From Chamberlinius hualienensis (Eukaryota), in assembly GCA_054772095.1 (NCBI GenBank), contig BAAGAE010000030.1:87335-151334 (forward strand): a stretch of 64,000 nucleotides of DNA, in the 5' to 3' direction. Positions 9,877-48,788 of this stretch are shown here, piece after piece. Every line of letters starts with the position of its first letter. Position 1 is the first letter of the stretch. A program made the translations under genes and the position numbers. The notes below the pieces were generated by a model. The model saw only the letters and a program-made list of their open reading frames with translations, ran no database searches and was not told where the DNA came from.

Positions 9877-9888
9877 GTGGCGCCACCT
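9877..9888. promoter_or_regulatory. 12-bp GC palindrome GGTGGCGCCACC (a CTCF-like GGTGGCGCC core on both strands)
   Basis: Direct reading. This is a rare GC-rich 12-mer in an AT-rich context. Confidence 0.4.
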
Positions 9889-11397
9889 CTTGTCACACGC
9901 GTTGCTCCGCCATTTTGCTCTTATCAAATTGAAATGTCAAACAATTCCCTCAGCACCAACATTTTCTTTTCTCTACGTTTTCTTCCATTTCTTCTAGTTT
10001 TTATCTGTACTTGTGTTTTTATTTTATTTTATGTTTTTTTTCTTCTTCCTATGGCAGGAGAGTGAATTGAAAAACAAACATGCAAGCAGACAGAAATGCA
10101 TGTCGTCAAATGTTTCCGCCATGTTGCTCACTACTTTCAGCCTATATCGATTAACAAATTAAATAACAAGAGTTTAAGGAGGGGAAAGTCATTACTGGGA
10201 TGTCATGCATAACATCATTTGAAGTAGTTTCACTCTTAATACTTCTAATAGAAAAATAGCTAGATTTATCAGCAGTAAACACGAACCTATTGACGTTCAG
10301 TTGAGTTTAGCCCAAATGAATTTTGAATTTTTTTTTTATTAGATTTTACATAATGACATGGGTATTAGCAGGCAGCATGGGCACTTGGCGTGTAACTTAA
10401 TTAAGAAGTTGTTTGTGTTTTTTAAAACTCTCTTACAAATCGTTTATTCTCCACTTATAAATTCCTTGTTTGTGTCCTTTTCTTTTATTTATGTTTACCA
10501 CCCTACATTACTTTCCTCCTCCCACATCACTATCTCTTAGACTCCACCTCCCCCCTTCGACATGTTTTATTTATTTAGCCAACTGTTTTCTTTTTCTAAC
10601 TTCCCCAACAACATCACTTCTTAGCAAATGTGAGCACGCGTCAAAAGTTGAATCGCTACAAGCACATTTTTAACTATTTTGACCGCGTTGGCAAGTGACA
10701 TAAAAGGAGAGAGGGACGTGGTGTGGGGATGGGGATGGGCTGAACCGGGTTTTAGTTGGGTGAGTGGGGGTAAAGTGAGTACTGTAGAGTGAAGTAGAGA
10801 AAAGTGGGGTTTTGAAAAATACTTCAATTCGATATAATGTTGAACAGTGAGTCGTCAACGCCACTGATGAACAAACGACATGTATATAAGTTAAGGAGTG
10901 TGGGGAGGAGAAGGGGGGGGGGAAGAGTAGACATTTTGTATATAGGGTTGGAAGTTTGAGGGGTGTGAGTAAGGAGAACGAGGGATTATATTTCTTTTTA
11001 ACTTCACACTACACCACTGAATCGTCTTTCTTTAAGGATGTAAACTTTTGACGCTTTTTGCTTTGCTCTCATATTTCTTTACTTGAGGTTTTTTTTTTCT
11101 TTTTCATTCCCTTCTCTCCCTCATTCCTCTTATTCTCTTTATTAATACACACTGAAAAAAATTTCGTGGTCTCTTCTCTTCCACCCATACCCCCGTCAGC
11201 CTATTTCCAACCCACACGACACACACTCAAATAACAAATGTAACAGCAGCAGCTGCCAAAGATAAACACAAGATTAATATACCCCACATTCTCAGCCTCC
11301 TCATTCACCCAAAACACAACTTTCAACCCCTCAACCAGTCTGATAACACCAGGCTTTATTTTTCTTCTGGCTTCAAATAATAAATACTCGTTTGTTG

Positions 11398-11405
11398 TGA
11401 CGTCA
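11398..11405. promoter_or_regulatory. Perfect CRE TGACGTCA
   Basis: Direct reading. Confidence 0.5.
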
Positions 11406-12897
11406 TAAGTGGTTTTTGACGCTAATTGCTCTGAACAAGTTTGTCAGTGTGTTTGATATTAATAGGTTGAATTTATTTACGATGTGACGAGAGATGTGAA
11501 TGCGCTGCGGTTGGATGAATTGAGGGCTGCGGAGAGGAGGAGGGGGTAGGGGAACAGCTATCGTATATTAATGCTAATATTAACAGGTGAATGACGTAAT
11601 TAAAGAGTGTAAATATTTATGGCTAACTAATAACGTGAAACAGATGCACTACATTTTTGCAGTAATTTGGAGCAGAGACAAGGTAAGGCCTTGTTTAACG
11701 CGTTAAATTCCCTCCAGAGAAATATCGTGTAATAAAATGCCAACTAACATTTACATGACATGGACAACAGAAAAACGAGGCCAATGTAATGTATTTATGC
11801 TGTGGGAAGTTCCTTCAGGTAGCTTATTAAAGTGACCTTAACAGGTTTTTGGATTAGTGGCGACTGTTAAAAGGTCTTTGTATGGTCATCTGGTGACAGT
11901 TTTAATGGTAATTGCCATTTTTAGTTTTGGTTTTTTGACTGACACGCAATTTGGATATCTGAACTTGCTAATTAACATTATGTTTGTGAAAAGATTATAA
12001 TTTTCTACTTCAACAGGTTGGTGTGATGCAATGCAATTGGCAGTAACATTTTGACATTGACAGAAGTTAAATTAGTTGAAAAAGTGGTTTAATTCGCGAG
12101 AAGGACGTTGATACTCTATATTCCAGTTTCATAAACATTAAACAAGTTATTAAATAGTAATTAAAATAAATGGCGCGATCGTGTAATTTAATTAGCGGCG
12201 TTAGCCAATTGCTTGTAATATTAGTCTTTGCTCCAGTATTACATAACTTTCTTGACGACATCCAACAATGTACAGTACTTATACGGTATAATGTACAAAA
12301 GCTCGACGAAATGATGTTTTTATAACCTTAATATAATATACTGGAGTAGTAAATCGTTCTATAGGTTTCCTTTTATAAAAGGCGATTCATAACTAAGTTG
12401 TCAAATGTTAGGGGAATATTATATACAGTAGAGTTGGTAAACGAATACGGATAAAAATGAAATTTTATATGAAAATTCAACGTTAATTTTCAATGCCATG
12501 TTTAGTGATGTTTTCACAAGAACTTCCACGTCTTATAGGTTTTATTTGCTGCCTGGTAACATGATATCGTGTCACAATAAAATGAAAATGTTGGTTTAAA
12601 ATAAAAAAATCAGGAATAATTACGGTGGATTTGTTATTTTACAGTAAGTTTGTTTGGCAGTAGAATGAACGAAATCTGACGGCTAGGGAATTGTTACAGT
12701 ATATGTCACGTTTCAATTAACCTTTCGTTTGAAAATTGAAAGGCAGAGGTCAACCTGTGTTAATTTGAATATTAAATTGAGGTCAACGTTAAGGGGTCAT
12801 AAGCAACACTTGTATCAAAGTTTACAGTAAAAGTCAACATAAACAAGCCGCTGAAGTACATTACCATAATATATCTGGGAATAAATACGCTCGCTAA

Positions 12898-12905
12898 TGA
12901 CGTCA
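12898..12905. promoter_or_regulatory. Perfect CRE TGACGTCA
   Basis: Direct reading. Confidence 0.5.
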
Positions 12906-13296
12906 ATTGGCGAGTCATCATTAGCAGATGTAGTTCAAATATTTTGTAATAAATCAGCGTTTGTATATTACATGGCAGAAACTTTTCGAGGTTAAGTTAC
13001 GAGAGAGGGGGAGGGGGAAATTAATTTAGAAATTCTTCAAACAGTATTCGAAGTTAATCTTTTGAAGTTTAATCTTTCTTTTCTTTTAAACTGTGTAATA
13101 GAAATACGTTTTGTTAGGTTACAGTTGTTTTGTGCCCTCTATTAAATCTCCATAGAAATTCAAATAAAAGCCCCAACGGTGGCCAAATAGATAATAAAAA
13201 CAACCACTCCTTTAAAAAATATAAACAGTATGAAAAAAAAAATTATTTTGTGTACTAAGCTGTTGTGTTATTTTAGTACAAGTCAAAGTTAACCAT

Positions 13297-13313
13297 CAGG
13301 CGCCACCTACCGG
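13297..13313. promoter_or_regulatory. CTCF-like motif on the minus strand (CCGGTAGGTGGCGCCTG)
   Basis: Matches the CCASYAGRKGGCRSY consensus. Confidence 0.4.
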
Positions 13314-13442
13314 TTGTTTAATGTGAAATTAAACGAAAAACCAGCTTGAAATAATGGGAAGGCAAGTCACGACCTCTGTTCTCGCAGTTGGGGAGATTTT
13401 TTTTTATTTAGCTTTTTTTTCGCTTTTGGGGAGGCAAATTTA

Positions 13443-13460
13443 ACGCCACCTAGTGGGCAG
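13443..13460. promoter_or_regulatory. CTCF-like motif on the minus strand (CCCACTAGGTGGCGT)
   Basis: Matches the CTCF consensus at about 13 of 15 positions. Confidence 0.4.
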
Positions 13461-14720
13461 AAGGAAATTACCCCTTCTTTTTGGTCATGTCTTTCGTCGG
13501 CCATTTTTATCTCAAACGTTTTCTTAAGGAAAAAAAATTTTTTTTTTTGTTGTAATGTTTAAATTGGACTGCAAACGTTGAAAAAGACAAAAAAGTGCCC
13601 TCCTGCGGTGAGCGTTGTTTGGGAACAAAAATGTTACTAATAATCGGACAACTTTCGTCACCTCCCAGTACAAGTTTTCTTATTTGGTTTCACGAAGTAT
13701 TTCCCCTTTTATTTCATCCACCCACTTTTTTTTTTCTCTCTCTCTATTTATTTATCTATTTTTTTCACTCTGTGGTTATAGTAACTTTGGCGTCAAAGAA
13801 AAACAACCTATAATTGGCACAGGAGAAAAATGTTAATAATGTAAGGTGGTTAGTCGTCACGTTTCTCTGTAATTTAGTAATTAAATATCAATCAAGAAAT
13901 TTAAGAAAAATTAAGGGAAGTTAAGAGGTTTTTTTAAAATATTTTATTTAATGGAGTATAACATGTTGTCTTATAATTTTTAATCATGGCTAATTATAGT
14001 TCTCGTCTGATGATGTTGAAGGAATTTTTTAATATTAATTTAATTAACTTTCAACGCTATAGCCTCGTGATCATTATGTTAGACTGTTTTTTTTACTTAT
14101 TTATTATAAAAAGCATCTTTTAAAGATAAATTGAAACTATTTGCTGTTATTTTTGGGCTGTACTTGTCGTTCTTGCAGCTAATTAAATGATATAATGACG
14201 TAGATTGACGTTGGGTGGCGCCATTAGCACACTCCCACTCTTTATTCCGCAAAGATTTTTTAATTTATTTGAATGTAAAGTAATAATAACTTCCGCTGGG
14301 TATTTATCCTCTTTCTACTCCTCCTCCCCATCCCACTTACAAGTCAAATTGCAAACAGATGAACTCGAGCGTTTAATTGCGTCCAATTTGTCGGTTAGAC
14401 AGCCGGAAGTTCAACCGTTAAGCGTATCAGCTGCCTTCTGGTGTGGGAATTACAAATGGTGGTCGAAAATTGATGTTGAAGTAATTTACAGACACATTAA
14501 ATGCGGTTAAATTAACGTATATATCGCCTTTTGTGTTTGGACGGAGGAGGGGAGAATTCGTATGAAAGGATTAGTTTTAACTAGACAATTAATATTTTTT
14601 TAATTTGTAGGAGGGATATTTTTACTAATGGTAGACTAAATCGATATTATTAACGTACAGGAAGTACGCCACTTTATTTAATTTTAATTCAGAAAGAAAA
14701 ATGCGATATACGTTTTTAAA

Positions 14721-14742
14721 ATATATATATATATATATATTT
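14721..14742. repeat. (AT)11 microsatellite
   Basis: Direct reading. Confidence 0.9.
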
Positions 14743-16890
14743 ATTTTTTTTAACTTTATTTCAGTACTATAGAAAATTTAGTACGGCGAAATTTCCTTTT
14801 ATAATCTTCCGGTAACATTATATTTTCCTCATGCGTGAATTTTCATTTTTTTCTTCTTTTTGCATAATTTTGAGAAAATAAATTTGTTGTTAAAGGCAAT
14901 TACTATATTTAAATAAAACATTATAAATTTGTTAACACTTGAACTCAGAATTTTTTTTAATTTGGCAATTTTTGGATGAAACCTATTGATGGCAATTAAA
15001 ATAATTACGTGATGACCATTAAGCGTATCTTTAATGTGTCTGTGTAAACTTGTAAAGTATATCAACGACGTTAGCTATTATACTAGTATTGCTTTTCCAA
15101 TAAAAAGTATATCAAGTTTTCGATGCTTACTTTACACATATCTAAAGGACTATGATAATATACCGCTAATGGTGAAGTTTAGGTTGATTACTCTTAACAT
15201 TTTCTTAAACTAAAGCAAACAGACACAGTTTTCTTGAAGTTAAAAAGTAAAATGTCTTGGTATAAATACACATGACATGCGTATTTTCTCATCAAAATAC
15301 TGTATTTAAAAATGTGAAGGAATTTAGATAGTTTATCGATATTGAAGCTACACTATTGCGAAATATGACCTAGCCCCCCCCCCCCCTCCAGCTTTAGATC
15401 CTTGCTACGCCAATGGGCGTGCAACTACTGTATACCATTTGGAATTTTTAATACAACAAACAACTTAGCTTTCAAACAATAGTTTTCTCTGGTAGTCAAA
15501 ATAGTTAAGTTCTGAGAAAAATTGTATTATATTTTCTATATAGTACTTTCTATGAAACTAATGTAAACTTCACTTTCTAGTGTGCGGCTCTATTATCCGT
15601 TATCAGCCTAAGTTATTGATTATGGTATCTTTCCAGTCGATTTCAATATTGTCAACTCGACTTTATTTGGTGTATTGATTATCACTAGTGATATATTTCT
15701 TGTATACTTGAATGTTTCACTGTGTAACATATAACAGTACTCTACGGAATGTTGACTGTTTCGCTCCAGGTGTACGTGAAACTATTTCAGAAGAGTCGTG
15801 TGGTTAATATACAGTACAAGTATCTGATTACTAGGGTCTGGATTTTTATGATTATATCTAACTGGCATACGTTGTAGTTATATATAATTGTCTAGTCGAT
15901 TATGATAACTATTAATATATTATTGTTGTTTTTTTTTTTATATACCATTTTACAAATTCATGCCCTACTTCTAACCAATTTGTGGTGCACTTAATGCATA
16001 GTTTGAAATATTAAGAAATACGATAGGAAATGTTTTTGTTCTGTACTAAAATGTTGCAAATGTGAGAAATATGTGAAGCGATTATAATGTCGATTACTTG
16101 AAGTGCGATCTTTGTCGAGGATTAGTTTACGGGCAAAACAAAGATCACTGTAAAGTAAGTTTGAATTTGATTACTTCTAGGTAGTTTAGTATGTATTTTA
16201 ACATTGAACTAATTGGCATGACATTCATACAGACATATCATAAATTTGATTATTTTTTATTATCTAAAATAAAATCGTGTGTCAACCACGCCGTCGCAGA
16301 CGTCACACGACGTCATCTTGAAACACTTCTAACATGTAAAATTAAATAGTTATAATTGAAATATAATTATGCAACTACAATTGTTGTACCGTACAAAGTC
16401 CTTTTTTTTTTGAACAGAAAAATAGGCATGACTCGTTTTGTTGCGAATTTTGACTTATTGCGGTGATCCATAATCCTATCCTATAATAACTTGAGGCATG
16501 TCGGTAGTCGTAAATGCTCAATTTCGTCATTATTACAGATTTAACGCAGTAATTGGCCATTTTATTGCAACAAATTCACCGAATCTAGTTATAAAACGTC
16601 AAATGGCTCATCCATTTCCAATGCTGATTATTGAATAAGCAGCACTAGCACTTCATTGTTAAGTTTAACAGCCAATTCTCCGGTGCTATTAAATTTGTAT
16701 AGATTTTTATTAATGGGATCCATTGTATACTATACAAATGTTCTTACTAGGTCACCATAGAACCCAGTTGTGTTTCTCTCTATACGTAAATATTGAATAA
16801 TGATATTTAGTATTTGCATTTAGCTTTAAAATGCTGCTTGTGAAGCTAATCAATATGTTTATTGTTGTTTCCAATCGAAGCTTTTATCTC

Positions 16891-16904
16891 GGCAGGTGGC
16901 GCTG
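16891..16904. promoter_or_regulatory. CTCF-like motif GGCAGGTGGCGCTG
   Basis: Matches the CTCF core. Confidence 0.4.
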
Positions 16905-17021
16905 AACCATTTCTATTCAACCCACGAGTATATCATGCGTTTAATTCGTTTGTTAGGGCGTTACCAAATAGGGGTGGGAGTTGAAAAGAGTGAAGACAGT
17001 TTACACCACCGCTACCAACAT

Positions 17022-17035
17022 CGATATATCGATAA
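17022..17035. promoter_or_regulatory. 14-bp palindrome ATCGATATATCGAT containing a DRE-type TATCGATA
   Basis: Direct reading. The motif is the DREF/BEAF-32 CGATA class. Confidence 0.4.
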
Positions 17036-19029: not shown

Positions 19030-19056
19030 TGTGATAGTGAAAGTGAAGACGATCAG
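19030..19056 (+). CDS. AUTS2: AUTS2-family micro-exon (27 nt), peptide CDSESEDDQ
   Basis: Acceptor ttttag ends at 19029 and donor GTAAGT sits at 19057. Matches human AUTS2 CDSDSDQEE, and the phase is compatible with the flanking exons. Confidence 0.7.
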
Positions 19057-21012: not shown

Positions 21013-21020
21013 TGACGTCA
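21013..21020. promoter_or_regulatory. Perfect CRE TGACGTCA
   Basis: Direct reading. It lies about 25 bp upstream of the MITE insertion at 21047. Confidence 0.5.
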
Positions 21021-21046
21021 TTTTATGTCAGAATGGGTTATACGTA

Positions 21047-22473: not shown

Positions 22474-22481
22474 TGACGTCA
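22474..22481. promoter_or_regulatory. Perfect CRE TGACGTCA
   Basis: Direct reading. Confidence 0.5.
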
Positions 22482-25400
22482 TAATTGTAATTAAAATCAA
22501 CGTATAAACGATTTAGAACGAGATCTTGACGGTTGCTAATAACGTCGATTTGTACCGTAACAAAGTCAATTGGTATTACAAGCTAATCGTTTGTGCACTG
22601 TTTTTGGTGTTATAACTTATTTATCGATCTGTTAACTTAATACTGTTCATCCACTACAAAAAAGGAACCGGTTAAATTTTCAGGCGTCTACCTGTAGTCT
22701 TACTGTATTTTGCCTATAGTTAAGTTGTTTCAGTCCACTTTAGAATAACCGGGTGACCGTTTTAGCTAGGTTATTCCTAGAAAAGTTATCCTGCTAAAAT
22801 TCGGTTATCCTGTTAAATAAATGTAGTTGGGTATTTTGAAAGAGCAAACTAGGTAGCTACTTCTTCTAGCTCTATTTGAGCCGCTACGTAAAATTACGTC
22901 AATACCAAAGAGTTACCTAGCTATCTATTTAACTTTAACTCGATAGTGGACGGACAGCATTAAATATCTCAACAACAAAAATGCTCACTCCAATTTTCAC
23001 AGCTTATTAATTTTGTCTTAATTGCAACAGCTTCTCTGTTTATTATCGCTTATACTACGTGTCTGCTACACAAAGATCTAGATAGCTAGCATCCAGATCT
23101 TTATTTTCGAGCCCATTTTAGCGGTGTGTCCACCGCGAAGGAAAGAAACGGGTTTTATTCGACATTTCTTAAATTAGAGCCAGTTTATTAAGCAATTAGT
23201 TGTTACCAAGATATAAATTTACTAATAGATCGATGATATCAGTGCCAACGTTTTTCTTTGAATTTGATGTACTTGAAATTATTATGTACTCGTAGGCAAT
23301 TTGAGTTCAATAAGACGTGTATCTAAGAACTCTTCGCGTTTATCTTAATATTCATTGTATTGGCAATTCATCTTGAGTAGAGGAGGCTTTTCGACATTTA
23401 ATACCAGTTGACATACAATTCTTTTTGCGATAAACGCACTTTGGTATAGTAAGCACTTTGTAATTTGGTACTAAATAATTATTTCGAGTTGTTTACAATG
23501 GACACTTTAATATGATATACGAGAAATGAGGACGCGAGTAGAAACTCTTCTTAAGAATATGTCAAAAGTACTGTACTCGTAATTTGCTTTTCTATGCCTG
23601 TTCATTTAATAATGTTTGATGCGGATTGCATTAGACACAACAAAATGACGTGACATTTACATCAGCTGTTTGTAAATTTGTCACTTAAGCTAATTGTACG
23701 TAATTGGAAGCAGAAAACGAAAAAGAAATTTTTTTTCTTTCTCCCTTCCATTGTTGTTTGGCTCGGAGAATATGTTACCCATAATCCTCCACTTGATGGA
23801 GTCACGCTGATTTAATTATCCTCTCCTTTCGACACACTTGGCTGATTTCGCGGCGCCCTCTAGCTTCATTTCTTCCACCAGGCGCCCTCTATATAATATC
23901 ATTGTTAGCAGCTTCAGATAACAATCGTTGGATGTCACGTTTCCAAATGACCGCCATTTATTTTAAATTGATTGTTTAGTCGACTGACACGAAGAAACTC
24001 AATTGGAAACAATCTACCATACTATGGTGGCTCACGATGAATAACATTTTTTTATTATTATTATTTAATTCTCTTTCCAAATCGTTACAATTAAGGAAGA
24101 GAGAAAAAGAGAATTATTATAAATTATGTAAATGAACTAAATTGTGCAAATGGAAATGGAAATGGTGAATTTTAAATGAGTAAATAATGGAAGCTTAAAA
24201 TTATCAACGTAAGCTTACTATACGATGGCTTTGAAAGACCTTGTCTACGATTAAATGATACGAATGTGGATAAAGATGCTAAAATATAAATTTGATTATA
24301 TAAATAAATTAGATTAAGAATATGATCGCTGAGGTCTGAACATTTGTAATGTGATCTTGTTGACTTTTCAATGTGAAAACTATTATTCGCATCACTAGAC
24401 GACATTTTGAGAAGGATAATAGACCATTGTAAAGACGGTTGTGTCGTGTAATGCCGACTTGTAGAAGTTATTTGTCAAGGCTTTCGCTTTTGTTGTTATC
24501 GAGCCCCTGTGTGCACCGCTTTATTTGTATGTGTTTTTGGCTTGATCTATATATACACGTATGGTGTGCACTGATGCCATTGTGTGCAAACAAAAATATC
24601 GGATGGCAAAAGCGTTGCATTCACACTACTAAACGCAAATACACATACATAAAACGACGTGGGGAAGATGGTTAGAGAGAGAGAGAATGAAAGAAAAATA
24701 AAATGGAGGGGGGTGGGTGTTTTTATAATAAATGACAGTTTTATGCATGCTAGTGTCGTAGAGTGCACCACTAGAGACCCATTTGCTCTTACATATCACT
24801 TCATTATTATTCACGTTTACATATATTTATCGTTGATGGTTTTGTATACATCACTGATAGCATTAAATTAATAGCGATTAATTATCAAAAGAAGAGAGAG
24901 AAAAAAAATTATATACCGCAGAGAATCGTATATATACATACAGTATAAAATGAATTAAATACTAGATGTAATTTTTTTTTCTGTTAATATATAAAGGCCT
25001 ATGAAGCATGGCAATGGCGTCGGGCACCCGGTGTTTTGCCAACCTATTTATTGTTTTCTTAATGCCTCCCCTGGTGACGTTTTGGTTAGATTTACTCTTG
25101 TGAATATATCTATGTGTAAATGTACACTGTAGGTGTTTGGTCGGTTTACAGGGTTTTCTCTTAGTGGGCAGGTGGGGGGGAGAATATCATTGGCACAACA
25201 ACACAAAAGGCGTTTTGTGTTTACGCTTCGTTGGAAGCGGCTATAATAAAATCGCCTTTACCTAGCGTTTGCGATGAGGGTTAACGTCGTCTGCTGCTAC
25301 GCTTTTACTTCTGTTGATATGTATGTATATATATATATAAAACGTTAATTTGTGATGTCGCACTGCGTCGATTATCGCTTTCATTAAACCAACGCATCCA

Positions 25401-26009: not shown

Positions 26010-26641
26010 TTCCATTTTATCGCCTCTTGTCTTTTGTTTTGAAGGGGTGGTTTGAACGGGGTTGTGATAAACTGCGTCGACATCCCTAACAATAAATATA
26101 CCCAGTTTACGACTATGGACCCAAAGGGACTTTTTCAAAAACGGCTTCTTCTCTCAACTTCATTCTATTCCTCCCCCCACCTCTTTTCCTATACTGTATA
26201 AGAAAGTACAGCACATATTCAGCATCACACACTCCACCCATCTCTTATGTGTGAGGGTGAGATTTATGAGCCAATAGCAGACGAGAGCGCCAACGCTATA
26301 AGGAGAGGGTTTATGATACTTTTATGACATCCGATCTAATACGAAAGCATTAGAATCCATTACAGTTAGATGTGATTGACTGATGCAGGGGCCGCTATGT
26401 GCTAGTCTATGCTTTACATCACTTTTTATATATCTCCACACGTCCACCCCCATGCCTCCACAACGGATAGTTACTATGGGGAAAGAGTGGGGGGTTAATC
26501 CCTTATGAATATATGTGTGTAATGGTAGTACTGTTTGTGGCGTTTTATTATCTTTCTATTTTTTTTTGTCTGCGGCCATTTTTGTCTTAAATCAGAAAGT
26601 TGGTCGATTCGAGTTTGTTGCTGAAATATCTGTAATCCGTT

Positions 26642-26657
26642 CAGCAGGTGGCGCCAC
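26642..26657. promoter_or_regulatory. CTCF-like motif CAGCAGGTGGCGCCAC, followed 18 bp later by the CRE half-site GTGACGTCC
   Basis: Direct reading. Confidence 0.4.
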
Positions 26658-27297
26658 ATTCTCCGGGTGACGTCCAACCACCTACATCAAACACATCTGA
26701 AGTTAAACGCTGACCTTTTATTGACTTTTGAATAACGTGTCACGTGAATATAAAGCGCCTTCTGGTGACCATCAACCGTGTTGTTTGGATTTTATGGTTT
26801 TGTGTGTACATTTTTTTTGTTGGTTTTGATGTGACACGTGATAGTGGGCGTGTGTGTGTGTGCTGAGGGGTCGATTACAGCACGTCTCCCTCGGGGGTTT
26901 AGTCGTATTAGTGTTTGTGATGGGTGATGGGTAGGCGTGGCTTTGAAAATTGATTGCGATGCGCTATTGGATTGGCAACATCGCTTGTAAATCCAAAGCT
27001 TAATGAAAAGTGACAACACAGCTTTCATGCTCTCTGCAACGCATGATGGGATATATACACCTCTTTCCTTTTCCTCATCTCTTTACATCATATCTCTTCT
27101 CCCACACTCTATTCTCTCTTTTCGATTTGAGATGACTACATTAAATAAATTGAAAAGTGATTTAGCATTTACTTAAAGGTGGAGTGAGAGCGTTAAGTGA
27201 CGGGGAACGTTCCAAAAGTTAAATTTGTCTGACTATTCATTATTCAGAAGACGTATTAAGAGAGAGCGTGTATCGATTGCTTGGGTTTCTTTTATTG

Positions 27298-29109: not shown

Positions 29110-30150
29110 CAGAGTGTTCGAAAAGGTCAAGTCAAAATGTAAGGTTGTCTTAGGACTTAGAAAATGTAACAAATCTGACATTTAGCATGCACCATTGATA
29201 TTGTAGCAGAGACGATGTAGTCAAAATGTAAACCAAAAAAATGAAAATGAATGTTTTATTTTTATAGATTGCCGTATAAGTTATATACTGTATATATAGA
29301 TTATAGTGATGTATTTATTATAGATGTCACGATATAGATTAGAAAATTTTCATTTTCTGGATTGCCATAGGTCGTTTGCTGTTTTTTTTTTTACATTCTA
29401 CGTTTTCGGTTACAGGCTGAGGTGGCGCAAACTATTAACACAACTAAAATGTACTATGCACGTGTCCGATGTGTAATTGTTTGAAATTAATGTGAGATTA
29501 AAAGATTTATAGTAGTTGTGTGTTTTTTTTTAATTTACATAACAGCACCGCCTAAAACTTTAATTTTGCAAAGTATTTGAAACCTCTGCCTTCGAGGTAT
29601 CTACCTTTAGTATCTTTTTAAAAATTAGTTAGAAAGAAAACCTGGAAATTGTTTTAATAGATTAGAAGAAATAATAAGTTTTTGGGAAAATTTTAAGAAT
29701 TTACTTTATTGAAGATCATATGTTTTCAAGATAAACTTTTTTTAATTTGTAACTTATGCGGTTTACTCAGTTTTGGTGGTGTCTAAATATATGGAACCAA
29801 GCTAATTGTGAACAAAAAAAAAACCATTTTAGATGATAGATTTATTTATATTTTTCTAGATCTGTAAAGGAAATCGTTTTTCTGAGAATTATTAAAATCG
29901 TTAGAGATGTATTGAAATTCTTTTCGAGACTCTATGAAAAAAAAAATTGATCGTGGGAGCAACACGGGGTCTGACATTTTGATCACCATATAGAGCGATC
30001 ACTAAATTGAGGTTCTACTATGCTGTAAAACCCCTGAAGAGTCTGATGGATGGTTCGGATATCATCGGTTCATAATGGACGTCGAATGGGTTTGAATTTC
30101 TACTCCGTATGACCGTCGTAAATGTTTTGTTGGCCTTTCCGAACACCCTG
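29110..30150. mobile_element. Non-autonomous Tc1/mariner-type DNA transposon (1041 bp) with roughly 22-bp terminal inverted repeats CAGRGTGTTCGRAAAGGYCAA and TA target-site duplications
   Basis: The left end reads TA|CAGAGTGTTCGAAAAGGTCAAG at 29108. The right end reads GGCCTTTCCGAACACCCTG|TA, ending at 30152. The two termini match at about 19 of 22 positions. No long ORF lies inside. Confidence 0.65.
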
Positions 30151-33100
30151 TATGTGGATTTGTTTTCATTTATTTATTTTTCTTTGGTATCGTGTGTGCA
30201 TGGAGACCGCTGCAGTGTCCCCATGACATTTTATATTTTCTTATCTAAATGTTTCTGTTTACTACCAACCGCGAAATAAAAATAATTCAAAGATGAGATA
30301 TTTTTTTTTTCTTCTTTCTCTCTCTTTTCTTTCTTGTTTTGCCGTTTGTTGTTGTTTTTTCTTTCAATTTATTATTTTCTTTTTGCTGTTGTTGGTCTTA
30401 TGTCGTGTGGGACTTTTAAGGATATATTCTACTATGTTGGTCGCCGCATTGGCTTTAAAAAATACACGAGGAAAAAAAATCGAAAAGTAGTTGGTTTGGG
30501 CAAGATAGAATTTTATTTATCCTGTTGACGATTGCAAGATGGGGAGATTTTTTTTATTCCTTGGAGAGCTATATTTTTGTTGCAATGTCTTGACAGAATG
30601 AATAACAGAAAATACGCAAACAGATTGACTACCCATACCGTAGAAAAGTAGAAAGGGACAGTGATTTTACATTTCATTTCCACTCGTAAACCGAGATATT
30701 GCTATTGGATTGAGATTTTTTTAATAAGATCGACTAACCAATGTTTTTCTATCGTTTGAGGATGCTATTAAAGTAATTACTGTCTATATAAGTCGATCTC
30801 AAGAATTGAAAGGCACCGTATTAACGATTAGTGGAAACCGAATTTGACAGCCATGTTATTATTAACTCAGATAAGTTTTAATGATATATCATTTTTGGTA
30901 ACAATCTTATAATAACATGCTATCAAATATTTGCTTACAACTGCAATTGGAAACATGACTGGTTGAGTTGTACTGCATTTTGATTAGTGATGGCTAAGTA
31001 TTGACTGTAAATAAAATTGAGTTGTTGACTGTATTTGAAGTTAACTGCTCTGCAAATTTTGTTCGGTTCTTCACTTAGCAGTTCTGGAATGAATGCATAG
31101 TTCTTCTGCATCTTTTTGGCAGGGACGCACAAGGCGCTTATCGTTTACCGCTAAAGTCGCTATAACCTTATAGCAGCAAAAAATCAGAATTCGTTATATT
31201 TACTTGCTTCTAATAATAACTATAGGAGGAAACTATAAACCAGAAATCTGCTATAATTCTCTATTTATTTACAGTATGTATTTGTCATCAAACTAAACAA
31301 ATGTTATTCAATCCGTGAATTTTCTGCTGAACTTACAGTGGTGAAAGTTCACGAGTCAACGTGTGCTGAAAAGTACTTGGGTATATTTAACAGTAAAAAA
31401 AATAACACTGCGGTAATTTTATTAGGAAACCAAAGAATTTCATCGTCAATTTAAAAAAAAAAGCAATCAAACTCTTAAAGATTGGTTTTTAAATTTATTA
31501 TTAGATTAGGCGTTCTCACGAAATATCTTAGATTGAGTGTAAAGTATACTCGATTATTTATTTGTAACCACATTTTGCGCTTTGACAAGTGGCCCATTTT
31601 CAATTACATTTTTATTACTTAAAGTGAAATTGTACTAAGTGCTCAATTACAGCTTCATTTCACATTGAACAGTCCTTTTTGAAATTTCAACTTGGAAAGC
31701 GTTAAAATATAGTCATTATTAACTTTTTAGCACTATATTATTGAGTGACATTATGTTTTTAATTATTTAAATTTTGCTTACTTATTATTTTGCCATATGC
31801 TGCGAATGGCAGCTGTAAACGTAGCTCATTTTTGCTGATTTTTTAGTTTTTTTAATTTTCGATTGTTAGGTTTTTGTTACTTTGAATTATAAATGTTCTC
31901 AAAAGTTATTCCCCCTTTAAAAAATGCTACTGTATGATTTTTTATGTCTACGATTTTAGCATGTAAGCTTTTATTTTTTGACTTATTATTCGCCATCTAG
32001 TGGTGATGATGTTTTGATAGTGGGATATAGTTGTGTTTTCATTAGTGTACGCATCCCTTAAATCACGTGAGTGACTTGTATTGATTAATATAGTAGCTCA
32101 CTTATTTGCCTTCAGCGCTTTTCCATCATTTTGATTAGTCAACTTTTTGGCTTGTTTACTTGCCTTTTTAATTTTTTTTCCCGGCATTTTTTTAGTGCTG
32201 GCTAATAAAAGCTTTTTCGAGATTTGCGAAATTAAACCTTCAAGATCAAATGTCAGATTATTTTCACCGCCTAACATTTTCACTTGTCATTTTTTAATGT
32301 AAAACCAACTTATTCCCCCTTTTTTATATTTTTTTAAGTCTACTTATGAATAAATAACTCGGTTGGGGAATTGCAATATGAAAGAAGGGAATATTAACTT
32401 TAAAAGGATTTTTTTTGTGGAGAAGAGAGAGAGAGATAAGAGATTTACAATACAAGATTTAACTGAAGATTCAGGTTTTTTATGTTTTACGTTTGAGACG
32501 CCGTAATAGATGCTGTTTTTTTTTTGCGTTGTGAAGTGATGTAACACTTGTTAAACATTAGTGGTGGGCGTGGCTTATCGTTTGACCCCTATAACCGGCA
32601 GTGTACTTAGTCGACAGTAGGTGTGACTCTCAGTAGGACAACAACCCTTTTTAGTCCTCTTGTTTTTATCTCAAGTGTGCCAGCTAATTGTCACAAATAA
32701 CGTCAAGTGCAGCTCAAGTGACGACAACTGCAGCAATGTGCAATACCCTGGCTTGATTTCTTTAAAAAAAAAAAACAAACGTGCAATTCGTTTTTCTGGA
32801 CGACTTTCCAGTGGTTGCCTAGAGACACTTTGCTTTACCTCGCGCCATTAACAATAAATTTTCGAAAACGAGCCGGCGTCACATTCCAGCCGGCGTAAAG
32901 TGGCTAAACAAATTTATATTTTATTATCAACTTAGAATGCAAAAAAAGAATAATTTAATTAACTTAATTATCGTTATAATAAATTTAAATATTTTAAATC
33001 AATATCGGTGTGATGATGTTAAACACAATTTTCGAATACTGCCAAGTAAAAATGACACAAAATATAGGGGAAAAAATTGATTTATACTTTTCAATTAATC

Positions 33101-34992: not shown

Positions 34993-35023
<31 letters not shown>
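34993..35023. repeat. poly(T) homopolymer, about 31 nt
   Basis: Direct reading. The listed ORF 34819..35025 ends in FFFFFFFFFF. Confidence 0.95.
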
Positions 35024-35024
<1 letters not shown>

Positions 35025-35236
35025 AGTTATTTTTTTCTTCTTCTAAATGTCTGTTTAATTTCCCTTAGATAGAGGTCGCTGCAATAACAAAACTTTTTTA
35101 TTATTATTTTGCTTGGGGAAAAAATGTTGCGAACTACAGGGATGTCAACCTTTTTTTTTTTTAATTTTTTTTTTACTAAATAAAATTATTAAAAAATTGA
35201 CATCTTTTTGAAAGCCAGGCAGTTTTATTTGGAGAG

Positions 35237-35244
35237 TGACGTCA
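35237..35244. promoter_or_regulatory. Extended CRE GTGACGTCAC
   Basis: Direct reading. Confidence 0.5.
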
Positions 35245-37582: not shown

Positions 37583-37597
37583 CCGCTAGGTGGCGCG
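37583..37597. promoter_or_regulatory. CTCF-like motif CCGCTAGGTGGCGCG
   Basis: Matches the consensus at about 14 of 15 positions. Confidence 0.45.
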
Positions 37598-39347: not shown

Positions 39348-39521
39348 ATGTCGTCGAGCATTTTGGCGGATGACAGTGCATCGTTAACGGCCAGCAGCGC
39401 ATCCTGGTATTCTTCCTTCAACGGTTTAGCTAAAAGCAAAAAAGATTTTAGTGGAATTTCGTATGAAAACGCTTTCGATTCAGATTCCAAACAAAATCGA
39501 ATGCTGTACTTAGTATCAACG
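39348..39521 (+). CDS. Candidate alternative first coding exon (ATG...LYLVST, 58 codons) with a GTAAGA donor. It is in phase with the AUTS2-family exon at 57489, or could belong to a nested gene.
   Basis: This is the only non-low-complexity ORF in the 38-kb intron (listed ORF 39330..39578). It ends exactly at a consensus donor ACG|GTAAGA in phase 0. The sequence upstream (38950..39360) is CpG-enriched relative to its surroundings. Confidence 0.3.
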
Positions 39522-42500: not shown

Positions 42501-43746
42501 GTGATATATTGGAGTGTTCTTTTAATGGTATAAATCACAGTCAGTAGTTGCACTTGTTTAATAAATTGTTTAGTGTAAATATATTCTCTGGAGCTCAACT
42601 TTGGTGAAAGCAGGGTGTTTGATAAAATAATCTTCTAGTTTTTGATCCTCTCTCTCTCTTTTTCTTAATCCGTTTTTATTGTGTTGCTTTAGGCAATCCG
42701 ATTTAATCCTCGCAACGCTTTCGGCGGTGCGTCTACCGTTGATAAATGGCCGATAGATGGCGCATTTTCTCAGGAGGGGGATTTGTTGCCATCGTACAAA
42801 TTAGTCGCTTCCGAGGTAGCGCCACAACCGACACTTTTGAAACCATCGAGGGAATTTAGTTTTCGATATTTAATCCGATGTTTTTGAAAAACACAACACC
42901 TCTTCAGCTTAGCAATCTCAAAACACAAACACTATACCTATCACACATCTTTTTAATAGTATTAATAATGTCGGATGGAGACTAAGGGAAAAAAGAAGAT
43001 GATTGACAAAGCGTTTAAACGATCGTTGTCAATGGATCGACCATCTTATTTGACACATTTATACAGCTTCGTTGCATTGCGTTAAAGCGTTTTTTTATTG
43101 CCACTTGTGGTAATGGCGGAGAATATATATATTTTTTTCTTTTAATTTAATTATGAATGCCTTAAGATGTCCGCTTAAAACGATTAAGTGTACGTGTCGA
43201 GGCTGGCTATGATTTTGATTGCGTTATATTATTTATTTACCACTTACCGTCATCATTCACCGCTAGGAGCAGCGTCTTTTTTTAACCGTCACTTTTTGAA
43301 ATATTAATTTTAACCTTAAAATGGCTGCTGTTACTTTTATGCGGTAGAAATGTGCAGCCGTTTAAGTGTTATGTATTGTGTCTCGTAAATAAATGATAAA
43401 TTAATTCGCTGTACAGCAAACGCTTACAACTAATTAATATTTGATCAAGGTGCAACATTAATTATTTATGAATTAATTTGTTAGCCTATTTATCCATCTA
43501 AGCTTCCTTTAACGCACTACTGTTCTGCGAATGTCATTAAAATGTAGTCTTAGATTGAAAACTCATTTTCTTCCATTTAGTTTGACGTAATGTCAATATT
43601 TTTTAAGCAAATTTTTGTGTAAAGTGCCGCGGAAGCTTGATGTCTGTTAGGGATTTATATTTGTCAGCATATAAATCAGTTGCAAGTACATCGAAATCCC
43701 TCTCCTCTCTATCTGTCTATTGTTTCTGACGTTGACAGTTGGCTTG

Positions 43747-43754
43747 TGACGTCA
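43747..43754. promoter_or_regulatory. Extended CRE GTGACGTCAC
   Basis: Direct reading. Confidence 0.5.
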
Positions 43755-45071
43755 CTTTGCCGCAAACGTCAGCTGAATAATAAAGCACAAATCCATTTAC
43801 CAAATTATAAAAATAAATGTGATTACGGAATCGCATGTTTCTTTTCTCTTTTTTTTTTATCATTATTTTCTTTTTTTTTCTCTGTGTTTCTCCCCCCTCG
43901 CTCTCTCTTTCTGTCTATCTATTTATCCGCCATCTTAATGTTTCTCTACCCAATCGATTTTGGCGTTGTTGTTTTCGAGGGGTTCTGTGATTGTTAAAGC
44001 GCCATCATATCCACTAGGGACATTCCCACAATCCCAAAACAACAATCTTTTTTTTTTTTTTATCTTGCTACGTAATTCAAGATGGCGTCTCTCCCACCAC
44101 CACCCCCTCACGTCCACCAATCCCTGATCTTAAAAAAAAACACAAGGCAAGTTGAGCGTCTGACTGCGTGTGTGTACATTCCCATTTATTTTTGTTTGCT
44201 TTTTGATGGGGTTGGCGCGCGTATTTTATTTCATTATCGAATCGTGCCATATGACTTCTTATCTTTCACAAGGCTTTCTCCATCCCTCTACATAAACCCC
44301 ATATACTTATATATATATATATTTGTCCTGTCTATGTGTTTTCTTCACTTTCTGTACATATACTGTATATATATATAAACTTTTTTTTATAACGTTACCG
44401 TTCTGCATCGTGCATAGTTATTATGTTTCTTGGTATATTTGTAACGCTCAAACGGCTCTGCTTAGATGCTTAGTTGCTCGTACAATCGATTTTTTTAATA
44501 CAAGATTCAGGTTGGCGGTATTGGGCCACGCAAGAGTCGAAAGTGAAGTCGAAAAGAGAGATGACGAGTAGACGTTACGTAAGATGTGTTGGGTGACACG
44601 TAATAACTACAACAGTCAGTGTTCACCATAATTTGCTGTGCTATTTACGACTCCATCCATGTCATTTCCCCCATCAGACGCCCTAGCTAACATTCAACTC
44701 TAATATGATTGCTGAGTGTTGGATAATCGCCTAAAGGGAATATAACAAAAACCCAAAAGGGAGGCTGATGACTGACTTTGAATAGGGCGGTTGACAAAGG
44801 GGAAGGAACAACTCTCTTCATTATATTATTAGTATCGGCATACAGATGAATCTTTATAGCAATTTAGATATTTCTTTTTTTTGGTTGCTTTTGCTCTATT
44901 ATTTATACATCCATGCAGACTGAAGGAGACAGGGTATTTGATTTGGCTAACGTTGTGGGGGAGGAAAAAAAATCATCTGCTAGATATACACGTATATGAT
45001 AGATACACATGAAATGGTAACAAATGTTGTGCAAATAGAGTTGAATATTAATTGTGTCTAACATGCGTTAA

Positions 45072-45079
45072 TGACGTCA
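45072..45079. promoter_or_regulatory. Perfect CRE aTGACGTCAt
   Basis: Direct reading. Confidence 0.5.
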
Positions 45080-45148
45080 TAATATAAGCTAGCATCACTC
45101 GCCTCAGTAAAAATGAAATTTCACAGTTTATTTACGGGAGTTTTTACT

Positions 45149-45172
45149 ACAGGGTGATTATTGACCGAATTC
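45149..45172. mobile_element. Solo terminus of the CAGGGTGATT MITE family (TA|CAGGGTGATTATTGACCGAATTCC). No matching right end was found.
   Basis: The same 10-nt terminus preceded by TA. No inverted partner is present downstream, so this is a truncated or decayed copy. Confidence 0.3.
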
Positions 45173-46437
45173 CTAAAATGTCGATGTGTAAAAATATGGT
45201 GGAATCAATTTCGATAGGAATTACAGTACATATTATTCAGAAGTGTTATTGACTTTTTATAGTTTGATTTTGTATCGAATTATGACTACCCAAGCTAATT
45301 GAATTTCCAGACTATGAAAGGTCTATCGCACTTCTGATTAACTTCTGCGATTAATGGGTTTCCACATAAAATTTGCTTTGGCACCTCGATATGCACCTTA
45401 CAGTTGACATCCTAATGTACTATATATGAATCATCTAGTAGGTTGGATACTCCATTTTTAGTTAACTATCTGTGCAGACGTCTGTACTTGTGTATTTTTC
45501 AGGCATCTTCGAGTCACTTGATGAGTTTAAGTGGATCTATTTTAAGAGTTCTGTAGCTATATTTTTATTTATATAGAAGAGATGCGGTTTTTTTATGTGA
45601 TGTTTTGACTCGTGATAGTTGACATCATTGGTGTTGATGGGAGGTTAATGGGTCGGTTGCAGTTCACTTAACTGACAAAGCAGATTTTCTTTTATTTTTA
45701 TGTAATTTAAACTGACGCCTTATTTTGTCGTCATCCGCTTTTTCTGCTCTGAACTAGCTGGCCCCTAGTCTCATGGTACATTATTAGAGAGGAAACCCAT
45801 TCTACAATTTGCATTGAGACTTGTTTGACTTTAAACTGCGCAATCACGTGACGCTGCACGACATCAGTTTATAAAGATGTCTACATCATATATGTATACG
45901 CAGCTGCTTTCTGCTTCCTGTGCTGCTTCCGGTTTCCGTTTGAGCAGATATATAGTGGCGTTAGAGATATGAAGAGCGTGATGGTGTTTTCCACGCTGTG
46001 GAATTGTTAAATTTTTTGGTGCTTGTAGTGTTGTGGGGGGCTGAATAATGTAGTGAGGTTGTTGTGATGGGGAGGAGATGTGTATATATATATATATATG
46101 AAGTAGGAGCTGAAGAGAGTTTGAGAGAGAAAAAAAATATATAGTTTCCCGCCAAAATCGATATCGCGAGGGTTGTTGGCTTTTGTTGTTTTTCACTCAG
46201 TCGCTCTCTCTAGCGTACATTTTGCACGCTATCAAAAACGCAGCGGTAGCAAACTAGCAAAGCGCGACTGGCGTTTGAGAGCAGACAACTACAGCTCTTT
46301 ATCGCTATCTTTTGACGCTCCCTAGAGGGCGTCGCAATCGACGAGTACCTTTTTGACTCGCATATCAATTCCCAACACCACCCCATTTCCGGTTATTTAA
46401 CAGGAGCTCTTTTAGTTCCTACTCCGGCTTTTGATCG

Positions 46438-46438
46438 C

Positions 46439-46469
<31 letters not shown>

Positions 46470-46471
46470 AT
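46438..46471. repeat. C18 homopolymer followed by (AC)8
   Basis: Direct reading. It lies inside a CpG-enriched segment. Confidence 0.9.
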
Positions 46472-46527
46472 ACTTTTCTCTTTTTCCTGCTAATTCGTCT
46501 GCCACTTTTTTCAAAGTGGACGTGTAC

Positions 46528-46544
46528 GCGCACCAGGTGGCGCT
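46528..46544. promoter_or_regulatory. Near-consensus CTCF-like motif CGCACCAGGTGGCGCT, inside a CpG-rich segment
   Basis: CCACCAGGTGGCGCT matches the CCASYAGRKGGCRSY consensus. Confidence 0.5.
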
Positions 46545-47530
46545 TTTGCCTTGTAACTAGCCTTTTTAATTCGATACGCGATGCTCGTTACGCAACTTAA
46601 TCACGTAATAAAACCATTTCGCTTCTTTTCCGTTGGCAAAACAACGTTTCATTTACCGCCACTGGAAAAAAAAACTTAATTTCCACTACAATTTCATTGG
46701 GGGAACGCAAAAGGAAAAGTAACAAGGAAAAAAAAATTTGGGAAGTTTAGTGAGAAAAAATTTAATGGAAATTTAAAGGAGACAAAAAAAATTTGTTTGT
46801 GTTTACTGCGCAGGCGTAGTGAAGAATTTTATGACTGTTTTATCAGCTGTTTACAAAAAGAGAGAAGCGGTGTTGGTGGTCGTTTGACGCTGGATTAACG
46901 TTGTTAATTTGTACGCATGCATGACAACACTAGTAAAAGAAGGGGAAAATGTTATAAAAAATTGTTTTTGCGTGTAATAGTATGTGTGTGTTTATTTGCG
47001 TGAGGGATATATTCATTATAGATTAAAATAAAGATGGAAAGGGGGGAAGAAGGTTGGCATTATTTTAATATATGTACCTACAGTATATATCTATGAAGAT
47101 GGCGTTTATTTGTGTGTGTCTGTGGGAGGGGAAAGATGTGATGCGAGGGCAATGTAATAAGTTCGTTGATGCGTAAATGAAAATGATCCTTATTACATAT
47201 GTCACCACGCCAGCTAATCTCTTTTCGCTCATAAAAAAGGTACTTGATCGTCGACAGAAGGGCCATTTGGTTGATTATCTTAGGCGAGCATTATGCTATC
47301 TCACCCCCACTGCCATTTTTCTAATTCTCACATCATTTTTTTTTTCTTCTCCCTCTCATTTTTCTTACATATTTTTTATACACACAAAAAGATGTTGCTT
47401 CTATCAATACACAATTCCCTTAACTATGTGGCTAAACCGCTCTTAGCCTCTCTCACTCTCGCTCTTTTATGTGGCCTTACGTAATGTCCTTTGCCATTTT
47501 TACATTATTCATGAGTTCGGTAGTCACCGT

Positions 47531-47538
47531 TGACGTCA
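47531..47538. promoter_or_regulatory. Perfect CRE TGACGTCA
   Basis: Direct reading. Confidence 0.5.
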
Positions 47539-48001
47539 TTTAAGATTTTTTTTTAATACGGTGTAAACTGCAAAATATGGGGTAGAATGGAACATCAAAT
47601 TTTTTAGTGAATTATAACATACGTGTGCAACATTATGATGGCGTGTCTTATGGATATTTGTGGTTGCAGGTGTTGTAAATTGAAGCCAACAGAGGGCGGT
47701 ACAAAAGAGAAGGCGGGGAGGGGAAATATTTAACTTTTAATAAAGCACTAATATTATACGTCGGTTAGAAATGAGATCAAGTTGCAGGGTTTCAATATCA
47801 ATGGCAGCAGACGTTTTCTCTCTCTCTCTCTCTCTATCTTGCTCTTACTTTGCTTTTATTTACCTTTTAAAAAGCTAGCACGCGTGAGTATAGGCGTGGT
47901 TTATGGCGCCTTTATAGTCTATGTGGCTCCTAGTAACGCCATTCAACGACAACTTTACACGTTCAATCTAAATTGTTCATAAATAAATAAATATCGGCTT
48001 C

Positions 48002-48019
48002 CGATAAATCGATTTATCG
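48002..48019. promoter_or_regulatory. 18-bp perfect palindrome CGATAAATCGATTTATCG (CGATA motifs on both arms)
   Basis: Direct reading. The sequence is identical to its own reverse complement. Confidence 0.4.
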
Positions 48020-48757
48020 ATCTTTTTTTCGCTCTCTCTACCTTTTGTTAGGATGGTTATAGTTTTTTATTGTTTGGTTTAATGACCCAAGTGGTAGATG
48101 ATGATGGTCATATTCACTCTTGTCAGCGGTTCGCGTGGTCGGATGTGGATAAATGCAGGAAATGAAATTAGCACACATTTTATTTTAGTAATTGAAATAG
48201 CAAAAAAAAAAAAAAACTTAGACCAACTACGCATGCGTATACTGTGCGCATGTGCGGATGGTGAAGGGATTTGTTGATTTGTAAATGTTTGCTATGTCAT
48301 AATGTTGTTGTAAACTGTTATGAAAGGACATCAAAAAAAGTTTCAAATAGCTGCGTCATCGTTTGCGAAGCAACTTCATACTTAAGATTTAAGCTGCCAT
48401 CTTGGTTTTCTTTTCTTTTTTTTTTGGTGTGTTGTTTGTCTGTTGATGTGTGGTGTATTTGATTGGATTAAAGTGTTGAGGAGAGATGTGTGGAGTATAT
48501 GGTGAGCGTGTGAAAACGAAAAAGAAATTAACAGCGCCCTCGTGTGGTGCTAAATGTGTGTGTATAAAAAGAAAATGGCTTTCCCTAAGGGAATTATATA
48601 AAGTAGCCTCAAACTCACTCTCTCATGCTACCTCGTTATTTTCCTGGGGGTTTTTTTTCTACCCTTTTCCAAATATATGGATGTCCCTCGAAATTAGATA
48701 CAGGGCGGGTTGACTGGGGTATTTTTTTAATCTACTTTGCGTTGTCATGACGTCATG

Positions 48758-48765
48758 GCATTAGT
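48758..48765. promoter_or_regulatory. Perfect CRE within the 12-bp palindrome CATGACGTCATG. It is the first of a pair 91 bp apart, with a CTCF-like GGTGGCG element between them.
   Basis: Direct reading. Confidence 0.55.
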
Positions 48766-48772
48766 AGGTGGC

Positions 48773-48788
48773 GAATGGGTGGGGTTTA
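48773..48788. promoter_or_regulatory. CTCF-like motif AGTAGGTGGCGAATGG lying between the two CREs
   Basis: Direct reading. Confidence 0.35.

Follow-up and report, generated by a model that had tools for sequence, protein, structure and literature searches.

Candidate CTCF-type sites recur in the large AT-rich intron of an AUTS2-family gene

Why does a GC-rich word return time and again in AT-rich intronic DNA, in copies whose surroundings have nothing in common? The question is raised by a 64-kb stretch of DNA from Chamberlinius hualienensis (contig BAAGAE010000030.1, positions 87,335 to 151,334 of the forward strand), which was analysed at its full length, is called the window below, and supplies all coordinates. 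An earlier note on this DNA had described words resembling the recognition motif of CTCF in a large intron, here assigned to a gene of the AUTS2 family, and had suggested that they serve as insulator or loop-anchor sites. The reading favoured here, with somewhat more confidence than doubt, is that the words are individually maintained, arthropod-type CTCF sites in unique AT-rich DNA of an intron of ~50 kb, with a proposed architectural role.

The first matter is whether the word recurs more often than chance would allow. Words were counted on both strands, sites being called by IUPAC consensus and word statistics, and the counts were compared with dinucleotide shuffles of the whole window, with dinucleotide shuffles within blocks of 200, 500 or 1000 bp, and with 500 column-permuted consensus motifs. 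The block-wise shuffles remove the effect of local GC patches, and the permuted motifs keep the degeneracy and composition of the consensus. The window has a GC content of 33% and a CpG observed/expected ratio of ~1.05, and the earlier claim that a GC-rich word recurs too often for such DNA was borne out, with ten copies of GGTGGCGC against 0.34 expected under dinucleotide-preserving shuffles. The word AGGTGGCGC is present in eight exact copies (0.11 expected under the 200-, 500- and 1000-bp block shuffles), and the degenerate core AGRKGGCGC in 14 (0.4 expected, block-wise). The 15-mer CCASYAGRKGGCRSY, the bilaterian consensus, has no exact match in the window; mismatch-tolerant and core-word searches were therefore adopted, and a site is said to match the 15-mer if it does so at one or two mismatches. 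At no more than one mismatch the 15-mer was found six times (~0.05 expected), and at no more than two mismatches 17 times, as compared with 1.1 expected from whole-window and ~1.2 from block-wise shuffles.

When the columns of the 15-mer consensus were permuted 500 times and searched for in the real sequence, the mean count was 1.3 and the maximum 8, versus the 17 observed. None of the shuffles reached the observed counts, an excess was also present under Markov models of order 1 to 4, and AGGTGGCG(C) ranks among the top enriched 8- and 9-mers outside low complexity; over-representation is ~15- to 70-fold, depending on the word. Moreover, the 27 single-substitution neighbours of AGGTGGCGC have 0–3 copies each, versus eight for the consensus 9-mer, with the signal concentrated sharply on the consensus instead of being smeared over GC-rich words in general. 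An origin of the recurrence in chance or local composition, for which only the general caution speaks that patches of high GC may gather GC-rich words, is refuted by these shuffles, permuted motifs and Markov models and deserves practically no credence.

The sites that make up this signal are as follows, with mismatches counted against the 15-mer.

9124–9138, plus strand: exact AGGTGGCGC in a coding exon (..DVGGAS..), without a CTCF-like 5′ half
9876–9893, minus strand: palindrome GGTGGCGCCACC at 9876–9887, with a full AGGTGGCGCC core on the minus strand; 15-mer at 9879–9893, 3 mismatches in its 5′ half
~9905: YY1/Pho-like CCGCCATTTTG, ~20 bp downstream of the palindrome
13299–13313, minus strand: CTCF-type site CCGGTAGGTGGCGCC, 1 mismatch, exact AGGTGGCGC core; paired at 143 bp with the next site, which has the same orientation
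13442–13456, minus strand: CTCF-type site CCACTAGGTGGCGTT, 1 mismatch; partner of the 13299 site
14213: weaker site
16889–16903, plus strand: CTCF-type site TCGGCAGGTGGCGCT, 2 mismatches, exact core, C at -4
23852–23895, minus strand: two AGAGGGCGCC cores 29 bp apart; 15-mers at 23852–23866 and 23881–23895 with poor 5′ halves (3 and 4 mismatches)
26641–26655, plus strand: CTCF-type site TCAGCAGGTGGCGCC, 1 mismatch, exact core
26754–26768, minus strand: weaker site TCACCAGAAGGCGCT, 2 mismatches, 113 bp from the 26641 site; adjoins a TCACGTGA E-box at 26740
29415–29429, plus strand: exact AGGTGGCGC core in GGCTGAGGTGGCGCA, without a CTCF-like 5′ half
31989–32003, minus strand: site CCACTAGATGGCGAA, 2 mismatches, good 5′ half, core ending in GA
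37583–37597, plus strand: CTCF-type site CCGCTAGGTGGCGCG, 2 mismatches, CC before an exact core
42750–42764, plus strand: site CCGATAGATGGCGCA, first 14 bases those of the 53189 site
46530–46544, plus strand: CTCF-type site GCACCAGGTGGCGCT, 1 mismatch, exact core
47686–47700, plus strand: site CCAACAGAGGGCGGT, 1 mismatch
48761–48775, plus strand: weak site, 4 mismatches
49297–49311, minus strand: site GCACCAGGGGGCGCT, 1 mismatch, vertebrate-like GGGGGC variant
51936–51950, plus strand: site TCACCAGGGGGCGTT, 2 mismatches
53189–53203, plus strand: site CCGATAGATGGCGCT, 2 mismatches
55119–55133, plus strand: site TGTGTAGAGGGCGCT, with the core AGAGGGCGCT, as in the Drosophila enhancer-blocking fragment ATGTCAGAGGGCGCT

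Every site listed in the earlier note is present, 0–6 bases from where it had been placed. Six of its seven main sites match the 15-mer at one or two mismatches, and the seventh, near 48773, is weak at four; its palindrome lies one base away from 9877, and its weaker sites (14211; 23850–23890) were recovered at 14213 and 23853/23882. Its tally of about eight to nine sites within 9877–48788 thus consisted of real sites but was incomplete, as roughly nine more were found, at 9129 (exonic), 29420, 31989, 42755, 47686, 49297, 51936, 53189 and 55124, several of them outside that range. The exonic AGGTGGCGC at 9129 may be incidental. An identical 14-mer, CCGATAGATGGCGC, is common to 42750–42763 and 53189–53202, with unrelated flanks.

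Is the recurrent word a CTCF motif? The enriched 9-mer is exactly the Drosophila CTCF core, described as a “strong AGGTGGCGC consensus” with a weak upstream CC (Holohan et al.; PMC1904468). Drosophila CTCF sites, such as those of Fab-8, Mcp, Fab-6 and Antp intron 1 (Holohan et al. 2007 motif; JASPAR MA0531.1), share this identical core, have the weak CC at the same spacing as here and likewise lie in introns of a large developmental or neuronal gene. Site pairs 100–180 bp apart are also found in both, at 143 and 113 bp here and at 179 bp in the Antp intron (PMC1904468). The upstream bases are the more telling, since sites were chosen by their core alone and the flanks inspected afterwards: C stands at -4 from the AG in 6/8, 12/24 and 17/36 sites with progressively looser cores (p = 5e-4, 2e-4 and 3e-5, respectively; background C 0.17), is also enriched at -2 and is weakly enriched at -5, as in the Drosophila logo. 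The enriched positions are C2 and S4 of the CCASYAG half, and an upstream C at the right spacing, having played no part in the selection, is independent evidence of membership in the CTCF family.

On the strength of core word and upstream C together, the earlier identification of the motif as CTCF-type appears well supported, and the words, some 14–20 in the intron, are probably arthropod-type CTCF recognition sites. It is reasonably likely, moreover, that most of these predicted sites are truly bound by CTCF. Orthologues of CTCF have been reported in all arthropod groups with genomes (PMC4208683), and CTCF motifs, as defined by the Drosophila matrix, are among the most occupied in nucleosome-free regions and open chromatin of the honey bee (PMC9723623) and lie in the open chromatin of a stick insect (bioRxiv 10.1101/2025.10.30.682900).

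A different factor, such as another C2H2 zinc-finger protein, might bind the word, or part of the set might be a YY1/Pho motif (AAGATGGCG / GCCAT) that overlaps the CTCF core. YY1/Pho sites have the sub-word ATGGCG in common with the AGATGGCG variants of the core and are also enriched in the window; a subclass AAGATGGCG[T/A/G] without the upstream C occurs eight times (0.3 expected), CCGCCATTTTG adjoins the 9876 palindrome, and several AGATGGCG sites with two mismatches, for example CCACAAGATGGCGAT at 49720, fit both motifs. The dominant word AGGTGGCGC, with its eight copies, is however neither a YY1 nor a Pho motif, and it is the upstream C-N-C at CTCF spacing that is enriched. None of the other insulator motifs described in insects (BEAF-32, Su(Hw), GAF, Pita, ZIPIC) is known to resemble AGGTGGCGC, which also counts against another factor. 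Binding of the whole set, or part of it, by something else is for these reasons quite unlikely. The AAGATGGCG[T/A/G] subclass itself fits YY1/Pho better and is not to be counted as CTCF; YY1/Pho sites lack the GGTGGCGC word and the upstream C-N-C, and this separate subclass was possibly conflated with CTCF sites by the looser matches of the earlier note.

A word may also be frequent through descent from a repeat. Among 14 aligned sites, conservation is limited to the motif columns and the flanks are unalignable; no dispersed repeat family covers the sites within the window, and the window holds no tRNAs (ARAGORN) and no matches to Rfam families. The GC content within ±100 bp of the sites is 0.349, as compared with a background of 0.344. 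The earlier statement that contexts differ from site to site, so that no repeat family is involved, was therefore upheld, with no consensus of a short interspersed element (SINE) or tRNA seen in the window. A repeat, tRNA or Rfam origin of the sites was ruled out there by the flank, repeat, ARAGORN and Rfam checks, and a SINE or tRNA-derived origin is excluded with them.

A broader form of this explanation is that the word is frequent genome-wide for a non-regulatory reason, for example through k-mer bias, as a hotspot word for recombination or gene conversion, or as what remains of an ancient dispersed element, and that the sites are not individually selected. The density of the sites is several-fold above published insect values, as such an explanation would have it, and motif-bearing repeats do exist in other organisms: a metagenome scan with the site pair at 13.3 kb returned five unrelated contigs that carry CCACTAGGTGGCGC in tandem units of 128–144 bp, with no orthology to the window. 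These contigs have a GC content of 36–45%.

L008, 1597–1754: tandem units
L009, 459–618: tandem units
L010, 2125–2494: tandem units
L011, 6383–6693: tandem units
L012, 3212–3364: tandem units

In L008 and L011, CCACTAGGTGGCGC stands beside AAGATGGCG and GCGCATGCGC, so that three words enriched in the window fall within ~40 bp.

Within the window, by contrast, the 14 aligned sites share no flank and belong to no repeat family, their surroundings have background composition, the count peaks on the consensus without spreading over decayed variants, and the other enriched words are classical transcription-factor motifs, fitting selection on binding sites. A genome-wide, non-regulatory word is accordingly very improbable as the source of the sites, and individually maintained sites remain the favoured reading.

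What kind of gene holds them? The plus-strand gene, of arthropod type, belongs to the AUTS2 family, since two concatenated 3′ exons match Pfam Auts2 above the curated cut-off. AUTS2-type open reading frames were also matched, the best named match being to the stick insect Dryococelus; a conserved AUTS2 exon has a best identity of 71–88% (to contigs and the stick insect), the last exon has one match at 45% identity, and a low-complexity exon of 354 amino acids had no match in the protein search. Its parts in the window are as follows.

9103–9234, plus strand: small coding exon, acceptor tttttacag, donor GAA|gtaagt; 5′ edge of the large intron
9235–58754, plus strand: large AT-rich intron, ~49.5 kb, containing nearly all sites
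58755–64000, plus strand: 3′ exons of the AUTS2/tay-like gene (58755–~59982, ~61316–61660, 61827–61949, 62108–~62300, 62887–63193 and ~63.3 kb on)

No CTCF-type sites were found in the 3′ exon region (58755–64000). The intron had been put at 38 kb in the earlier note, which proved too short; its length of ~49.5 kb follows from there being no convincing exon between 9103–9234 and 58755, as a search of splice signals and open frames within the intron found none, with small exons still possible. The candidate acceptor at 58755 has a frame offset that mismatches the whole-codon end of the 9103–9234 exon. Throughout positions 1–58000 the plus strand has more G than C and more T than A, and cumulative GC skew climbs steadily to 58 kb. 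Such strand skew is the pattern expected from transcription-coupled asymmetry across a long intron.

The CTCF word has company here, as at least four further motif words are enriched in the window. Foremost is the palindrome TGACGTCA of the cyclic AMP response element (CRE), whose enrichment (20 copies, ~0.6 expected) is stronger than that of the CTCF word; its flanks are unique, it usually lies within ATGACGTCA or TGACGTCAC, and it suggests, as read from the sequence, a heavy CREB/ATF-type input to the host gene. An NRF-1/Ewg-like palindrome, CGCATGCG, has seven copies (0.3 expected), often as ACGCATGCG and in unique flanks, and the YY1/Pho-like AAGATGGCG, which overlaps the loose CTCF consensus, is present at eight positions; GCCATHTT has 42 copies, of which the plus strand carries 34. 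The near-palindrome ATACWGTAT, often followed by ATA, has 15 copies (0.8 expected) and TACAGTA has 51 (7.7 expected), although the excess of ATACWGTAT may partly reflect TA-rich low complexity. Finally, there are six palindromic E-boxes, which like ATACWGTAT have unique flanks.

1546, 2260, 6768, 11398, 12898, 21013, 22474, 27298, 28097, 29047, 35237, 43747, 45072, 47531, 48748, 48849, 49830, 51176, 51598, 58271: CRE palindrome TGACGTCA
20323, 33727, 36218, 39957, 40327, 48230, 56925: NRF-1/Ewg-like CGCATGCG
28382, 37765, 40513, 43928, 44079, 47096, 49722, 56760: YY1/Pho-like AAGATGGCG
2629, 15297, 19200, 19395, 19609, 21194, 24938, 26191, 29285, 38253, 40580, 44360, 51622, 52343, 54514: ATACWGTAT
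6556, 26740, 32063, 38558, 40149, 45844: E-box TCACGTGA

Such a collection is in keeping with an intron dense in regulatory elements, in a neuronal or developmental gene. In DNA of this kind, binding sites that contain GC are conspicuous amid the AT-rich neutral sequence. Three of the E-boxes (6556, 26740 and 32063) lie within 170 bp of the CTCF-like sites at 6389, 26754 and 31989, with an estimated nominal p of ~0.03; across the CRE, NRF-1, E-box and YY1 words, co-localisation with CTCF-like sites gave no significant signal.

What might the sites do? In the proposed mechanism, a CTCF orthologue would bind them directionally via its zinc fingers and would recruit partners such as Cp190 or cohesin, as in Drosophila. 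The sites would then act as enhancer-blocking or architectural elements, and such elements would separate or tether the many regulatory modules of the intron, in which CRE, NRF-1/Ewg-like, E-box and YY1/Pho-like words are dense too. One motif with the core AGAGGGCGCT suffices for enhancer blocking in a Drosophila reporter, and the blocking is lost on a 2-bp mutation of the core in ATGTCAGAGGGCGCT; activity scales with occupancy (PMC7880997). The insulator or loop-anchor reading is plausible, but the arrangement of the sites does not specifically favour it; that insulation or domain partitioning is their main role is put forward tentatively, at rather less than even confidence.

Comparison with known systems brings out both sides. 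In Drosophila the sites sit at a few discrete boundaries, whereas the candidate sites here run across ~50 kb of one intron in a more AT-rich species. In the butterfly Junonia coenia, the Antp-Ubx_BE element, a proposed insulator with CRISPR support, comprises CTCF motifs (Drosophila matrix) in the last Ubx intron, likewise inside a large intron. Vertebrate loop anchors, at which convergent CCASYAGRKGGCRSY sites stall cohesin, belong to the same motif family, and the density per kb here is comparable or higher. They differ in that the exact 15-mer is absent here and the T variant AGGTGGCGC dominates over AGGGGGC, and in that vertebrate anchors are convergent, whereas neither a convergent nor a divergent pattern is significant here. 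The insects studied so far use CTCF for few boundaries, unlike the use of vertebrate loop anchors.

A number of points weigh against the favoured reading, and several concern how the sites are arranged. The density is 12.5 exact cores or ~22 AGRKGGCGC per 100 kb, as compared with 4.7 Drosophila CTCF sites per 100 kb in the bithorax complex (BX-C) and 1.7 in the Adh region (PMC1904468), a comparison in which thresholds differ between studies; a density several-fold above that of Drosophila could mean that the word is common genome-wide for another reason. The spacing of the 24 dispersed candidate sites is close to random, and tight pairs number only three (143, 113 and 29 bp); three gaps below 150 bp versus 1.3 expected are not significant by our estimate. 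Boundary-like clustering, with several sites within ~1–5 kb as in Fab-8 or Antp-Ubx_BE, was not seen; the butterfly element has eight motifs clustered in 5 kb, two of them conserved over ~300 million years, whereas the motifs here are dispersed. A runs test of orientation on 17 sites gave 6 runs versus 9.5 expected (P = 0.07), with no significance in stricter or larger site sets and no significant convergent pattern.

Other such points come from outside the window or concern the class of the sites. CTCF is needed at fewer than 10% of Drosophila boundaries (PMC7880997), and in the ant Harpegnathos the boundaries of contact domains (topologically associating domains, TADs) are not enriched in CTCF motifs. 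Some loosely matching sites (AAGATGGCG...) look YY1/Pho-like instead. The presence of CTCF in the source organism rests on its assignment to the arthropods, as it was the 64-kb window that was read. Finally, no orthologous intron was found among seven AUTS2 loci of other arthropods (L001–L007) or in the metagenome scan for the 13.3-kb pair. These seven loci are AUTS2 3′ regions and represent a different intron; because the equivalent intron is not covered, their motif counts, in which no enrichment like that of the window was seen, carry little weight. L001–L003, the three compared for DNA similarity, had none to the window and have two AGGGGGCGC words each, the AGRKGGCGC core is absent from L004–L007, and the 15-mer at no more than two mismatches was found 0–3 times in L001–L003 and L005–L007 and six times in L004, none with a full core.

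It may also be that CTCF binds the sites without their being insulators or loop anchors, and that they are ordinary enhancer or silencer, alternative-promoter or tethering elements, or modulators of elongation or splicing, as one motif class among several. The spread of sites every ~2–3 kb without boundary-like clusters, the unstructured orientation and the slight part of CTCF at fly and ant boundaries all suit this alternative, as do four other words equally or more enriched in the intron (TGACGTCA with 20 copies, CGCATGCG with 7, AAGATGGCG with 8 and TCACGTGA with 6), the nearness of half the E-boxes to CTCF-like sites, and the two BX-C CTCF sites that sit in Abd-B introns near alternative promoters (PMC1904468). 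On the other hand, CTCF peaks in fly reporters act as enhancer blockers, with activity in step with occupancy, rather than as activators or repressors (PMC7880997), and overall the CTCF-like sites do not significantly co-localise with the other motif words. Such non-insulator roles are somewhat unlikely as the account of the whole series, and arthropod-type CTCF sites with a proposed architectural role continue to be preferred.

Some further features of the window lie apart from these sites. A run of ~18 C (~46440) and a run of ~19 G (~50822) form an inverted pair (I12) 4.4 kb apart, and there are many (CT)n/(GA)n microsatellites, such as that at 55342–55390. A 30-nt word, TACAGGGTGATT..GTTG.CAAA, is present in four copies (3185, 12376, 21045 and 45148) with 70–73% identity to the 21045 reference; it has no relation to the CTCF sites and could mark one end of an ancient mobile element.

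The element type itself is already known, and it is the density that is the unusual feature. The present value of the finding is that of an in silico prediction of a known kind of element, together with a list of candidate sites. A bolder reading is that CTCF is used at vertebrate-like or higher density in this lineage or, failing that, at this locus, with one site per 3–5 kb in one 50-kb intron. CTCF would then be a main organiser, fencing off individual enhancer modules of a neuronal gene as in the bithorax complex but with sites ~five times denser, unlike its minor boundary role in Drosophila; this we regard as unlikely. If the sites are occupied by CTCF, however, the intron would be a compact natural test case, with ~15–20 oriented sites in 50 kb. 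It could then reveal the role of CTCF in insects other than Drosophila and at loci other than the Hox clusters, and could inform the question whether dependence on CTCF is heavier where a lineage has fewer accessory insulator proteins.

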